Below are positions 53,501 to 62,500 of a stretch of 64,000 bases of DNA, one piece after another. The first letter of the stretch is position 1, and each line of letters begins with the position of its first letter. The stretch lies in assembly GCF_017348835.2 (NCBI RefSeq), contig NZ_CP071375.1; one strand, 5' to 3'. A program made the position numbers. Origin of the DNA: Escherichia coli (GTDB lineage: Bacteria > Pseudomonadota > Gammaproteobacteria > Enterobacterales > Enterobacteriaceae).

Positions 53501-56500
53501 ATTAACGGCGCTGAAAGCAAGCCATCCGGCAGGCGATAAACTGCATATTGTGCAGTGCGATCTCGCCTGCCCCCAGAGCGTGAGCGCATTGTGCGAACAG
53601 ATAGCGCGCGAAGCTGGCAAGATTGATGTGCTGGTGAATAACGCGGGCATCGTGAAAGACAGCCTGTTTGCCTCGATGAGCTATGAGGATTTCACCCAGG
53701 TTATCGAAACCAACATGTTCAGCATTTTCCGTCTGACGAAAGACGCGCTGATGCTGCTTCGTGCGGCAGAAAATCCCGCCATTATTAACGTTGCCTCTAT
53801 TGCAGCGCTGATCCCAAGCGTCGGCCAGGCGAATTACAGCGCGTCAAAAGGGGCGATCCTCGGCTTCACCCGCACGCTGGCAGCAGAAATGGCACCCTGG
53901 GGCGTGCGCGTCAACGCGGTCGCACCGGGAATGATTGAATCGAAAATGGTGAAAAAAGTATCCCGCGCAGTGGTCCGTGCGGTAACCAGTACCATCCCGT
54001 TACGCCGTCTGGGGAAATGTGAAGAAGTGGCGAACACCATCGTCTTCTTAAGTTCCTCTGCCTCCAGCTACATTGTCGGCCAGACCATCGTTATCGATGG
54101 CGGCCTGGTCATGCGGTGATTTATGTCTAAATACACGATTCCTTCGAAAATCTTCCTCGAAATGGGCGGCTGGCGTCAGCCGCTGCTGATGGTCGATAAA
54201 ATTGCAGATTATAAATACGGTGAAAATGGCTTTGTCAGTGTCGTGAAACACGTCACCTATAACGAACCGTATCTACTGGGGCATTTCCCGGAAGATCCGA
54301 TTATGCCCGGGGTGATTATTTCGGAAATCTTCGGCCAGGCCAGCGAGTATCTCTCTTTCCTGACCGACATTTGCGATATCTGGCGCGAACGTTTTGAGGA
54401 AGAGCTGAAGTCGTTACGTGATATTCACGCACACATTCACCGCCCTGAAATGCTGGAGATTATCCGTACCCGGCGCAGCCAGGTACGCGGCGTGCTGGCT
54501 GCTCAGAACCTGAAATTTAAAGATATCGCCTATCCGGGTGATTCTATTGATGTTGTCAGCAAATTGGCTTTTTCGGATGCCAGTGGCTTTAAACACTATT
54601 CCGTGACCGCGTACGTCGGTAAAAAGCTGATTAGTCAGGGCACCATTATCAATTTCCGTGAAACCAAGTAATCCAATAAGAGAGTAAATATTATGTCTAC
54701 CATGAATGACGCTATTGAACAGCGTAAAGAAGTTCTGATGACCATTAAAACTGAGATCATCCAGCGACTGAATATTCAACGCGATGAAGCGCAAATTGAT
54801 GATGATACTGCGCTGTTTGGTAATGGTTTTAAACTGGACTCCGTCGATGCAACGGAAATTGTCGTTCTGCTGGATAAAGTATTTGATATCAAAATCAGCG
54901 AAAGTGACGACCCGTCCTATATGCGCAGTATCAATAGTCTGGCCACCTTCGTTATTCAAAAGAAAAACGATTAACTACTTATTAAAGAATTAATTATCAG
55001 GACACTTTTATGAAATCTCTTGCTGAATTTCACTTGAAAAATAATGCGGTAATGGGGGTATATAACAACCGTACCCTACCTTCTTCTTATCACGATGCTA
55101 TGACCATATATAAAGCCGTTCGTGAAAACGCGCTGCTGGTGGACTATTCTCACCTCTCTATTGTTAGCGTCATGGGCGATGATGCCTGGGCGCTGATCAA
55201 CCAGCTGGTTTCCGCAGATGTCTCCATCATTCGTGATGAGCAGGCAATCTACTCACTGGTGTTGAATGAAGAGGGCACCATTCGCGGAGACGTCTATGTG
55301 CTGTGCAGCATCGACGGTTATTACCTGCTGTCTGAAGATATTTCGGCTACCGAACTGATCGCCAGCATGAATACCATTCTCGAAAAAGCGGAAGAACTGG
55401 ATATTCAATCGCTGCCTGAAATTCAGGATATGCGGGAAAACAACTGGGGGGCAATCCTGCTCGAAGGCCCATACTCCTGGGAGATCATGTCTGAAATTCA
55501 TGGCTTTGACGTGATTGGCCTGCCTTACTACGAATACATGAATACCGATGAGGATCTGCTGATCTTCCGCTGTGGTAAACACGGTGAGTATGCGTACATG
55601 ACCATCGGTGAGCAGGCGAAACTGGCGGAGCAGTGGGAAAAACTGTTAACCGTCGGCGAGAAATACCTGATGCAGACCGGCGGCCTGGATTATCAAAAAA
55701 TCGTACGCCTCGAAAATCCATGCTGGGATGCCAGCCTGTGGGAAGGTCAGGCGGTGAATCCGGTTCAGTTGCAGATGCAGTGGGCGGTGCAGTACGACAA
55801 AGATGATTTTATTGGCAAGGACGCGGTGACAGAGCTCTCCCAGGAGTATACCGGTAATAAACTCATCGGCATGATCGCTCAGGAAGAATGCGAAGGCATT
55901 GAGGCTGGCGATCGTGTGCTGGTGGAAGGTCAAGACGTGGGCTATGTCGTGAAGGCACTCTTTTCCCCAGCGTTGCAGCGTTTCATTGCCCTGACTCTGC
56001 TGGATAATGATTACGCCTGGTCTGACATCAGCGGCTACGAAATTCAAACTGCTCACGGAATTATTCCGGCGCAATCAAAATGTATGCCGTTTATTTATAA
56101 CCTGAGCATGTTGGTTAGCCCAACTGAGCACAGTTATATCGACGCGTCAAAAAATAAAAGCGCTGCGTAATGAATATCGCCGCGTGACTATAGCTTACGC
56201 GGCTTAAATTAACCCCAATTGGCGGGATTGCCAGGTATTATTCATGAAAACGAACAGGAAAAGAGTTGTTATTACCGGGCTGGGGATTTTGTCCTCACTG
56301 GCGGAAAATATTCAGGATTTCCGGGAAGCATTATTAAATAAAAAAAATGGCGTTGCGGATAGCGAACGCTTTGCAAAATGGTTTGAAAATGCGCGTGCGG
56401 CAGAAGTGTTGCATGACATTGAATACTCCGATCTGAACGATGATGTTATCGATTCACTGGATAACGCAGCGCTCTGGGCCTACAAAGTGGGTAAAGATGC

Positions 56501-59500: not shown

Positions 59501-62500
59501 AAAGCGCTCATCACCGCCGGGCGCGTCAACAAAGTGAGGGCGTAAGGGTGCAAACGACTTACACCCAAATCAGCGCGGGTCGCAGCAATGATGCCTCCTG
59601 GCTTAGCACTAACGTGCACAAGGTCATGCAGGCCGCGATGAAGCAGGCTGAAATTGCGCTGGATGATCTTGCAGCCATTCTTCCACACGGCAACGGTTCG
59701 GCAGTGAGCGATAACGCGGAAGCCAAAGCCATCACCATGTTCGCAGGGGAGCGGCAGATCCCCGTTCTCGCCTATAAAGGGCAGATCGGCTATACCGCAA
59801 CCGGATCTGGTGTTGTCGATCTGATCATTGGCCACCATTCGTTGACGCATCATCAACTGATCGCACCTGTTGGCAACGACGTCATTATCGACAGCATGGC
59901 TTCGCTGGTACTTACGGACGGCAGCGTGACAAACCATAGCAAACGCCATTTGCTGAAGGTTGGTGTGGGTGTCGATGGTTCGGTTATTGGCGTTGTTATG
60001 TCAAACAGGCAAGCGGGGCGCGCGAAATGACGGAAAAGAGTATCTACCTGTCTTCCTGGGCGCTTACGGAACCGGACGACATTTTTTATTTTTATCAGCC
60101 GACCTGGCTCAACGCCTGGGAAGCACATATGTACGAAAGAGGATTATATGGCACCCGTGCTAATGGCTGGGGGCTGAAGCGCTTTGGCGTTGAGAACGAT
60201 ATTTATGCGCCGGAACGGATCCGTAATCCGCAATATATGCCTTACCTTGAGGCGATGGAGCAGGTGACCGATTCTGCATTACAACAAATGCCGACTAAAG
60301 AACGCATGAAGTTAATGAAATCGCGCACGGCATTTATTTATGCCGATTCCTGGGGCGAATCCGGTTCGTTTGAAAAAATTTCCAGTGCGCTGCATATCGC
60401 CACTATTGATACGCTTCCCAAGAATTTACTTAAGAAGTTTTCGATAACGGAACCGACTTGCAAGATTCGCGGCGAAAAACAGGCATTCGTTCAGGCGCTG
60501 CGTATGGCGCAGGATTATCTCGCCTGGGATGTATTCGATAACGTGGTGATTTGTGCTGCCTATCGGGCAATTCCGGTGCTGGTATTCTCTGAAGAAGATG
60601 TGGGTAAACCGCCTAAGCGTTTATTTCCCCGTCGTGCTGATGAGGTGAATTTATCTGTTGAACGAGTGGGTTGTTTTATTCTCAGCCAGCGTGAGAGCGC
60701 CATCAGGCTGCAATGCGGGGAATATCATTCCGGCACTGCGCCACAGCATGCTACGGATATTGATGTCATGGCCTTCAGCGAACGGCAACAAATGCCGTCC
60801 CGGCCTGCTGCTGGCGTTATCGACCTGGTGGCCCATTACGGTGAAAGCGGTTGTCTGACGCCCGCGTTGAGTATGGATTATTTAACCCGTCATATTCAGC
60901 CCGGTGGAAAAATGCGTACGGTCATTGCCGATAAACAGTTTGGTTATCACTACTTTGACCTTGAATACCTTGAAGGATAACGACAGTCGTATGCAATCTA
61001 CTATTAAATCGTTACCCGCTATTTCGCTTAGCAATATTTATAAGTGTTATGGCGCCGGGGCAGGAAAGGTTGATGCGCTTAAAAGCATTAATCTTGATAT
61101 CAATAAAGGCGAATTTCTCGCACTGTGTGGGCCGTCAGGCAGTGGTAAAAGTACTCTGTTGAATATTCTCTCGGGTATTGATAAACCGACCAGCGGAACG
61201 GTGATATTTTTAAATAAATTACTGAACCAACTGCCAGAAGAGCAGTTGGCTGTGATTCGTGGAAAACATTTGGGTTTTATTTTTCAATTTTTTAACCTTA
61301 TGCCGGTATTAAATGTTTTCGATAACGTTTATTTCCCACTGGTGCTTAATGGTCAGTTCAGTAAAAAAGAAGCCACTGAACGGACGCTGCATTATCTCGA
61401 TAGTGTTGGATTAAGCGGTTTTGGCGATCGTAAACCTGGACAATTATCGGGCGGTCAACAACAGCGTGTCGCCATCGCCAGGGCACTGGCCCACGAACCG
61501 ATGGTGGTCATTGCCGATGAACCGACGGGAAATTTAGACCTGGCAACCGGCGAGGCTATTTTGGACCTGTTGTTGACGATTAATCAGCAGACCGGCACCA
61601 CATTTGTTATTTCCACGCACTCCAGCGAATTAAAAGCGCGGGCACGGCGAGTGGTTGAAATTCAGGATGGAGTATTGATTCATGACTCAGATGCATAAAG
61701 GATTTTTGCTCATCGGCGTCTTTTTGTACGCGGCGTTTGTGGCTCCGAAGATTTACGCGGCAACACCCGACGCTGTTAACCAGGTTCTGCAACAGGGGCT
61801 TCCGGCGCAACCTGCCGCGCTGGCGACGCTGACCGAGGCGTTAAAGAAAGAATATGAAGCCAGGCACAATGTGGTGGCGCTGGTTTTTTACGCCTATGGC
61901 TTACTGCGTCAGGCGGACGGTTATGCGGCCACAAACGATTTTATCCATGCCTCGGAATACGCCAAAAGCGGCTTTTTCTGGCTGGATGAAGCGGTGGATT
62001 TGCAGGAGAAAAATCAACGCGTACGCTATTTACGCGCTCGTGTAGATGCCTATTTACCCGCAGACTCAGGGCGTTGCGTGGTGACAGTCAAAGACACCGA
62101 ACACATGCTGGCTGACCCGTCGATGTGGGCGACAACGATCCGCGACCATATTCTGGCGATGCGTTATCGCGCATTACGTCACTGCAAGGACACCACCCGC
62201 GCGAATGCGTTGTTGGCGCAAATTAAAGGGCAAAACGCCGCGCTTGCGCAGTCGCTGACGCAGGATTTTAATGTTGTACCAGAATGGGATAGTGAAGAGT
62301 TAACCCAGGTACTGCTGCCGCTGATGAAAGGTGAGTAAATGTCCGGGGAAATTTTAGCTGTTAATAGCGTTCTGCTGCTGATTCTGTTTTTTGTGTTTTA
62401 TCAGCTTCTGTTTTATTCACGAGATGTCAAATTTGCATTTTTGAATCGCTTTCGCCACAAGCGTCGCTCTTTTTCTACCATAACCGCTATTGTATTGGGT

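Follow-up and report, generated by a model that had tools for sequence, protein, structure and literature searches.

What does an Escherichia coli chromosome do with four ketosynthase-like units side by side? The DNA analysed here, 64,000 nucleotides of contig NZ_CP071375.1 (assembly GCF_017348835.2) and called the window below, carries at 56244-60980 an 852-aa protein with two ketosynthase (KS) domains, followed by a 407-aa KS-like protein, KS3, and a 317-aa protein, T317. A sequence-only reading of this stretch had likened the set to the KS and chain-length factor (CLF) of type II polyketide synthases (PKSs), and we asked how far that likeness goes and what pathway it could serve. In our analysis, the locus comprises four thiolase-fold units in two KS/CLF-like pairs, one fused and one split. 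We consider it rather probable that the region is the condensing-enzyme core of an orphan lipid pathway on O-island 47, resembling PKSs or fatty acid synthases (FASs) of the discrete, type II style. The units are as follows, in window positions.

56244..57455, + strand: active, FabF-like KS domain (domain 1), residues 1-404 of the 852-aa protein
57456..58802, + strand: short linker, variable insert (~440-505) and dead CLF-like KS domain (domain 2), residues 405-852 of the same protein
58807..60030, + strand: KS3, 407-aa KS-like protein, GTG start
60027..60980, + strand: T317, 317-aa cryptic thiolase-fold protein, ATGA overlap with KS3

The fused didomain

The open reading frames (ORFs) named in the sequence-only reading all exist on the + strand: 56244-58802 (852 aa), 58741 or 58807 to 60030, and 60027-60980 (317 aa). 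Its claim that KS and KS-like domains are fused in one 852-aa polypeptide is borne out by Pfam, which finds two complete KS units (ketoacyl-synt plus Ketoacyl-synt_C, at residues 6-358 and again at 413-811). Catalytic residues were mapped by HMMER alignments to solved FabF structures and by an hhalign profile alignment to E. coli FabF. The Cys, first His, Lys, and second His positions of FabF are occupied by Cys162, His294, Lys325, and His330 in domain 1 and by Glu607, Thr747, Asn779, and Phe784 in domain 2. All four domain 1 residues are invariant across 23 orthologs; the first KS thus keeps, as had been claimed, its Cys and both His residues. In the same orthologs the Cys position of domain 2 holds Glu (12), Val (6), Ile (3), or Gln (2), and the other sites hold Thr or Ser (747), Asn (779), and Phe, Leu, or Tyr (784).

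The second domain had been taken for a CLF that lost its Cys as in type II PKSs. The loss is there, and it extends to both His residues and the Lys, but its residues set the domain apart from an act-type KS-beta, whose diagnostic Gln it lacks. With the position varying instead among Glu, Gln, Val, and Ile, decarboxylative priming by the CLF would not be expected.

Dead as it is, the C-terminal half is conserved. Identity to orthologs is 51 to 88% over the dead-domain core (506-852), 65 to 91% over domain 1, and 17 to 80% over the linker and insert (401-505), which by this comparison is the only part of the protein free to vary. A frameshift or misassembly joining two genes can be ruled out, since the gene has the same length in E. 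coli strain PE164 and in O157:H7 EDL933 and full-length orthologs occur in 48 genomes. Full length across genomes, together with a conserved dead half lacking Cys-His-His, argues for a real, selected KS-CLF-like didomain and not an artefact. We conclude from these alignments that the 852-aa protein is a natural covalent KS-CLF-like didomain with a complete N-terminal site and a dead but conserved C-terminal half.

The best solved-structure sequence match to domain 1 is PDB 9s5h chain B (E 4e-78), and chain C of that entry matches the dead domain. This suggests that 9s5h is a recently solved KS/CLF-like heterocomplex of a related system; we found no paper or source for the entry.

A covalent KS-CLF fusion had also been called uncommon, and this did not hold up. 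The dead domain was searched against 1.84 billion representative proteins (50%-identity representatives), and 109 of the best 150 matches were proteins of 700 to 900 aa. In the two-domain proteins among them, the N-terminal domain always carries Cys/His/Lys/His. The Cys is missing from nearly all of the C-terminal domains, where a wide range of residues replaces it; among some 100 distant fused relatives this position of the dead domain is highly variable. The same didomain order is also the standard architecture in pfaC and hglC of polyunsaturated fatty acid (PUFA) and heterocyst glycolipid (HGL) synthases (PMC3098273). With so many fused representatives in addition to the PfaC/HglC layout, the fusion as such is not rare. 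The unusual part is a stand-alone didomain combined with a second, Ser-type pair and with a GcvT-like enzyme.

The GcvT-like gene, of the folate-type aminomethyltransferase family, lies immediately upstream of the fused KS-KS gene in four of five distant contexts inspected (L052, L054, L056, and L057). One of these four contigs is from a biogas fermenter, and a member of the protein cluster is annotated from a Moorella sp. metagenome-assembled genome. From gene order, the GcvT-like gene and the fused KS-KS gene look like a recurrent two-gene module. A richer relative of the O-island 47 lipid system is found on the metagenomic contig L052 (positions 309-12774): besides two distinct KS-CLF fusions, of 821 and 828 aa, it encodes a Ser/His/Tyr KS and its dead partner, a GcvT-like protein, and two FAD enzymes of the amine-oxidase/CrtI-like kind.

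KS3 and T317, a predicted split pair

The gene for KS3 most likely begins at GTG 58807, giving 407 aa. This codon lies 4 nt past the stop of the fusion gene (58800-58802) and is preceded by an AAGGGA Shine-Dalgarno sequence. The alternative ATG at 58741 is disfavoured; GTG 58807 fits the RefSeq annotation and the ortholog lengths of 403 to 418 aa. The KS3 and T317 genes overlap as ATGA at 60027-60030, so that the tight packing described for these genes is confirmed at both junctions. Packing of this kind is shared with act-type systems, in which the KS and CLF genes are similarly coupled.

The description of KS3 as a further KS with an intact Cys motif needs correction. Its Ser161, His294, Lys324, and Tyr329 are invariant in 45 orthologs, Ser161 standing at the nucleophile position and Tyr329 in place of the second His. 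In alignments to type I PKS KS domains, SNSSLTAVHLA of KS3 pairs without gaps with CSSSLVALHLA of the DEBS KS, so that Ser161 falls at the catalytic Cys and Tyr329 at the second His. Cys159, two residues upstream of Ser161, is Ser, Thr, or Asn in a distant clade; as a nucleophile, a role suggested by an hhalign pairing with FabF, it was rejected for its lack of conservation, in contrast to Ser161, which never varies, and in view of the gap-free alignments to type I PKSs. The assignment of Ser161 thus draws on conservation, on those alignments, and on a predicted helix start at residue 163. By its residues, KS3 is a non-canonical Ser/His/Lys/Tyr KS-like protein, not a Cys-His-His enzyme. It belongs to the FabF/type I-KS branch of sequences, not the KSIII branch.

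T317 had been listed as a protein of unknown function. No family can be assigned to it at the sequence level: it has no match in Pfam, NCBIfam, or PDB sequences (phmmer, E up to 10), and hhalign against the KS3 and domain 2 profiles gave probabilities below 1%. It does have a recognizable fold. An AlphaFold2 model (predicted local distance difference test [pLDDT] 83, predicted template modelling score [pTM] 0.86) matched ChlB3, OleA, DpsC, and the ishigamide CLF in Foldseek at E 5e-11, with 6kxd_B among the best structural matches. The predicted thiolase fold is unambiguous, although it was resolved by structure prediction only. T317 carries none of the canonical KS catalytic-site residues; its nucleophilic-elbow position has no Cys and shows instead an invariant K146-x-R148-G149-E150, the region reading K-x-R-G-E-[KRH] across orthologs. 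Many T317 orthologs are named 'ATP-binding protein' at NCBI. We detected no nucleotide-binding family or motif and, given the thiolase-like fold, the name looks like a propagated annotation error.

Several observations tie T317 to KS3. The two genes are adjacent in 46 of 46 loci that have both, with a spacing of -20 to +78 nt in the 44 callable intact cases. A single-chain AlphaFold2 model of KS3:T317 reached a pTM of 0.89; it can be superposed on 6riw_A, with 649 residues matched at 3.5 Å. On contig L052 the dead partner encoded after the Ser/His/Tyr KS is still recognized by the Pfam model of the KS N-terminal domain, which supports T317 being a degenerate KS. From the models, T317 is predicted to be a CLF-like partner of KS3.

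The operon and its island

The ketosynthase genes are part of a longer same-strand array, the other members of which are listed here.

47440..51252, + strand: filamentous haemagglutinin (FHA)-like TpsA exoprotein, 1270 aa (RefSeq; NCBIfam TIGR01901 and TIGR01731), first gene of the array
51341..52960, + strand: ShlB/FhaC-family TpsB transporter, 539 aa, 15 nt from the next gene
52976..53344, + strand: AcpS-type phosphopantetheinyl transferase (PPTase), 122 aa (NCBIfam TIGR00516, 79.6 bits vs cutoff 59.8)
53358..54119, + strand: FabG-like 3-oxoacyl-acyl carrier protein (ACP) reductase, the ketoreductase (KR), YxxxK motif present (NCBIfam NF009466, 225.9 bits vs cutoff 222)
54123..54671, + strand: FabZ/ApeI-like 3-hydroxyacyl-ACP dehydratase (DH), 182 aa, HFPxxPxxPGV motif and an internal insertion
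54693..54974, + strand: dedicated ACP, 93 aa, DSV motif
55010..56170, + strand: 386-aa GcvT-like protein of the folate-type aminomethyltransferase family, next gene before the KS-CLF fusion
60991..61698, + strand: LolD/MacB-type ATP-binding cassette (ABC) ATPase
61682..62338, + strand: h218, syntenic 218-aa protein with an N-terminal signal peptide, probably periplasmic
62339..63649, + strand: LolC/E-, FtsX-type ABC permease (Pfam MacB_PCD and FtsX in homologs)
63658..64000, + strand: start of a gene for a LolA-like 'outer membrane lipoprotein-sorting protein', continuing past the window end

Past the window follow a 462-aa probable outer-membrane protein (h462) and a FabD-like malonyl-CoA:ACP transacylase (MAT). 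The NCBIfam FabZ match of the DH covers residues 17-80 only; Pfam finds FabA/ApeI-like domains in its homologs, the ApeI-like match being weak. Homologs of the LolA-like protein match Pfam TP_0789-like, and the ABC ATPase resembles the DevA family. Signal peptides are predicted for the LolA-like protein, h218, and h462. No family was found for h462 in Pfam or NCBIfam, nor for h218 in NCBIfam. Annotation and family searches gave no enoyl reductase (ER), cyclase, thioesterase, or acyltransferase in the operon, and the 14 conserved genes described below include no cyclases or aromatases for an aromatic product. Matches to the cispentacin NCBIfam models AmcF, AmcE, and AmcB were far below cutoff and were judged to be generic KS, DH, and ACP similarity.

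The GcvT-like protein is full-length homologous to solved T-proteins (1WOO, E 1e-22) and falls under the NCBIfam equivalog cutoffs (TIGR00528, 94.8 vs 235.85; NF001567, 129 vs 300). At the level of fold and family it is, from these comparisons, clearly a genuine T-protein homolog. By annotation, gcvH and gcvP are absent from the operon. The 73-nt spacer at 56171-56243, between the GcvT-like and KS-CLF genes, is the sole sizeable gap within the operon. It holds a 7-bp GC-rich hairpin (GCCGCGT...ACGCGGC) without a proper T-tract, which could be an mRNA-processing or stability element.

The stretch 52900-63700 of the window is 100% identical to the chromosome of E. coli strain PE164 and is present in 384 of 5,426 complete E. 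coli genomes. RefSeq annotates the fusion, KS3, and T317 genes with the same lengths in PE164 and EDL933 (2559, 1224, and 954 bp). In EDL933 the copy is flanked by EAL-domain and GrvA-type regulator genes on one side and by ycdU on the other, the site at which a review places O-island 47 (z1528-z1556, 31.7 kb) (PMC8565820). The ketosynthase operon is therefore part of O-island 47 of enterohemorrhagic E. coli (EHEC) O157:H7, a horizontally acquired pathogenicity island.

The 852-aa fusion occurs at full length (~840 to 870 aa) in 48 genome loci from three groups, Enterobacterales, Acinetobacter, and Paraburkholderia (three orders), the genera being Kosakonia, Enterobacter, Klebsiella, Serratia, Proteus, Morganella, Erwinia, Acinetobacter, and Paraburkholderia. 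A 14-gene order (PPT-KR-DH-ACP-GcvT-KSKS-KS3-T317-ABC-h218-Perm-LolA-h462-MAT) is kept in all 48; genes are missing only at contig ends and in the Proteus/Morganella group. The PPTase gene is syntenic in 44 of them, the other four being truncated contigs. One further contig has the same operon order at 40% identity. Within the operon, the KS-CLF fusion is among the most conserved members and KS3 and T317 are among the least. Operons of the distant clade (Serratia, Erwinia, and Paraburkholderia) have one added gene for a short-chain dehydrogenase/reductase (SDR), which may point to a further reduction in these forms of the pathway. The extra SDR/KR-like gene lies between the permease and LolA-like genes in loci L028-L030, L034, L036, L038-L040, L042-L050, and L056.

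TpsA and TpsB, a two-partner-secretion pair, precede the lipid genes in most close-clade loci with upstream DNA recovered, Acinetobacter included; FHA and TpsB were not detected within 10 kb in the distant clade. A functional link between exoprotein and lipid is possible. Between divergent fimbrial genes and the FHA-like gene lies a 1.4-kb AT-rich non-coding stretch (46048-47439, GC ~0.37), likely the regulatory region of the long + strand operon. A consensus promoter and terminator scan of 46000-64000 gave counts no higher than in shuffled sequence and no strong internal + strand terminator.

Other parts of the island look different. The left part, at 32000-40000 (an EAL-domain protein, a ToxR-like winged helix-turn-helix regulator, and an SDR), has a GC content of 0.34 to 0.41 against 0.46 to 0.53 in the lipid operon, a contrast that suggests a mosaic origin of O-island 47. 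A fimbrial usher gene at 41459-43981 (- strand) is a pseudogene with an internal stop in this strain and is intact in EDL933; ycdU, just outside the window, is likewise a pseudogene in this strain.

The proposed pathway and its alternatives

In the pathway that we favor, the PPTase would make holo-ACP and the FabD-like enzyme would load malonate. The N-terminal KS of the fusion would carry out iterative decarboxylative condensations at Cys162. By analogy with known KS/CLF pairs, the dead C-terminal half may pack on the N-terminal KS as an intramolecular pseudo-dimer and complete the substrate tunnel, in this way gating chain length as CLFs do. KR and DH would process each beta-carbon and, with no ER encoded in the cluster, the chain would probably be unsaturated or hydroxylated. 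The presence of KR and DH without ER makes a polyene, or control of chain length, plausible. The earlier suggestion of a route other than bulk fatty acid synthesis fits what we found: a dedicated ACP, PPTase, malonyltransferase, KR, and DH, no ER, a Lol-like exporter, and a horizontally acquired island.

KS3:T317 would be the second, split heterodimer, with a function other than that of an ordinary elongating KS. Its most likely role is to prime the pathway or to transfer the chain through an O-acyl-Ser161 intermediate. It would then provide a priming or off-loading step, for which the operon offers no other candidate. The analogy is with KSIII-like acyltransferases of the DpsC and ChlB3 type, which prime or transfer acyl groups and do not elongate; the nucleophile of DpsC is a Ser. 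These enzymes (PDB 5WGC and 7EQI) share the thiolase fold and are among the top fold matches of T317, and they may serve as a functional analogy for Ser161 of KS3. KS3 differs from them in having Lys324 and Tyr329 and in its predicted need for a dead partner subunit. The GcvT-like enzyme would probably perform a folate-dependent C1 or aminomethyl step on a starter or on an intermediate bound to the carrier. Export of the lipid to the cell surface would fall to the LolCDE-like ABC system together with two periplasmic proteins and the probable outer-membrane barrel.

Several points weigh against this pathway. All functional steps beyond domain identity are inferred, and the role given to the GcvT-like enzyme is speculation from family and adjacency. 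Enoyl intermediates could be reduced by FabI of the host, which makes an unsaturated product less than certain. For the KS3:T317 complex, the model is an artificial single-chain AlphaFold2 prediction without an interface error map. In the alignment of KS3 by hhalign to the single FabF sequence, it is Cys159, not Ser161, that pairs with Cys163 of FabF, by way of a 2-residue gap. The distant relative L057 is without the KS3/T317 pair and has kept the exporter, which indicates that the pair is accessory to the core.

Among characterized systems, the locus works like a reducing type II KS/CLF system, its logic being closest to aryl-polyene (APE) and ishigamide biosynthesis and its covalent layout to PfaC. 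Each comparison fails on a defining feature: the CLF Gln of act systems, the Pfa partners, the starter and tailoring genes of APE clusters, or the FabF equivalog cutoff. Ishigamide Iga11/Iga12 (PDB 6KXD) is likewise a reducing type II KS/CLF, and its CLF is small, at 364 aa; the ishigamide proteins differ in being separate subunits, in their actinobacterial origin, and in having no second pair, GcvT-like enzyme, or Lol-type exporter.

The rival that survives best is an APE- or flexirubin-type pigment pathway, in which the fusion would correspond to ApeO:ApeC and KS3 to ApeR, with the LolA-like exporter placing a polyene lipid in the outer membrane. APE clusters are Gram-negative reducing type II systems described with a KS-CLF heterodimer, a second KS, and a truncated CLF (PMC8358021; PDB 6QSP), and the island locus likewise has two condensing systems, a KR, an ApeI/ApeP-like DH (by Pfam in homologs), no ER, a shortened CLF, and LolA-like export. 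In contrast to ApeO:ApeC, however, the first pair is fused here, and KS3 has a Ser/His/Tyr site and a dead partner of its own, whereas ApeR is a homodimeric Cys-His-His enzyme. The 14 genes include no aryl-starter activating enzyme, thioesterase, glycosyl- or acyltransferase, MMPL transporter, or tandem ACPs, and a GcvT-like gene is present instead. We consider this pigment pathway unlikely.

Another way to read the fusion is as the PfaC/HglC-like KS-CLF of a PUFA- or HGL-type synthase split into discrete proteins, with a long-chain unsaturated or hydroxylated acyl product. An active KS followed by a Cys-less CLF in one polypeptide is indeed the hallmark of pfaC and hglC (PMC3098273; PDB 6RIW), the modelled KS3:T317 pair superposes on the PfaC KS-CLF, and there is the DevA-like ATPase. 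The island didomain, unlike PfaC and HglC, stands alone without DH or AT domains, and its partners are all discrete type II-style proteins; the operon has no PfaA-type multi-ACP protein, PfaD enoyl reductase, or FabA-like DH2 tandem. Sequence relation to Pfa models is negligible (TIGR02813, 81 bits vs cutoff 1010), and 6RIW is not in the top PDB sequence matches of either domain, which makes a split synthase of this type quite improbable.

The pathway could also serve the FHA-like TpsA, for example by acylating or activating the exoprotein, rather than make a free membrane lipid. The PPTase gene is immediately preceded on its strand, after a gap of 15 nt, by the FHA-like and TpsB genes, in a position conserved across the closer clade including Acinetobacter, and no strong internal terminator separates them from the lipid genes in the scan described above. 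The distant clade, however, keeps the lipid operon with no FHA or TpsB detectable within 10 kb, and the Lol-like exporter suggests a free lipid cargo. We give this proposal little credence.

That the genes represent redundant or back-up housekeeping fatty acid synthesis through extra FabF-like enzymes, or a decaying island remnant, is very improbable. Domain 1 does score above the NCBIfam 'beta-ketoacyl-ACP synthase II' subfamily model NF005589 (435.5 vs 387), and the neighboring ycdU and fimbrial usher genes are pseudogenes in this strain. Against this, domain 1 is below the FabF equivalog TIGR03150 (453.2 vs 493.75), and the protein is a didomain and not a single domain of ~410 aa. The system has its own carrier protein, PPTase, and exporter, it is found in only the minority of complete E. 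coli genomes given above, and all 14 of its genes are preserved intact and in synteny from Enterobacterales to Acinetobacter and Paraburkholderia. Finally, an act-type aromatic minimal PKS (KS-alpha/KS-beta) with a CLF that primes by malonyl decarboxylation is scarcely credible: an active KS with a Cys-less thiolase-fold partner is the logic of actinorhodin KS-alpha/KS-beta (PDB 1TQY, chains A and B of which are among our PDB matches) and of AntDE (6SMO), but here the CLF Gln is absent from a position that is not conserved, genes for a cyclase, aromatase, or oxygenase are absent, beta-carbons are processed by KR and DH as in reducing systems, and the hosts are Proteobacteria.

Building on the orphan lipid pathway that we favor, a wider scheme can be drawn, which we hold to be doubtful. 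In it, a GcvT-like enzyme with a stand-alone KS-CLF didomain, often accompanied by a Ser/His/Tyr KS-like protein and its dead partner, would be a widespread biosynthetic logic. The folate-dependent aminomethyltransferase homolog would act on a phosphopantetheine-tethered substrate much as on the lipoyl arm of H-protein, creating or modifying an unusual starter with an amino or C1 group, and KS3:T317 would represent a new enzyme class that uses a Ser for priming or transfer. EHEC O157:H7, Proteus, Serratia, Klebsiella aerogenes, and Paraburkholderia would thus make a novel lipid of the outer membrane, perhaps with a functional link to the two-partner-secretion adhesin encoded next to the operon.

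The first O157:H7 genome papers reportedly already flagged 'fatty-acid/polyketide' genes on the island. Our full-text literature search found no study of the product or mechanism of these O-island 47 genes. The locus now gains a testable architecture of two KS/CLF-like pairs, one fused and the other split with a Ser-type site, and T317, formerly unclassifiable, finds its place in the thiolase fold. In distant bacteria, KS-CLF fusions again have a folate-family enzyme as their neighbor. The contribution of non-catalytic KS partners can be studied in two natural experiments, the Ser/His/Tyr KS-like protein and the variability of the fused CLF at its Cys position. Should the product prove to be a surface lipid, it could matter for envelope properties, for colonisation, or for immune recognition in several enteric and opportunistic pathogens.

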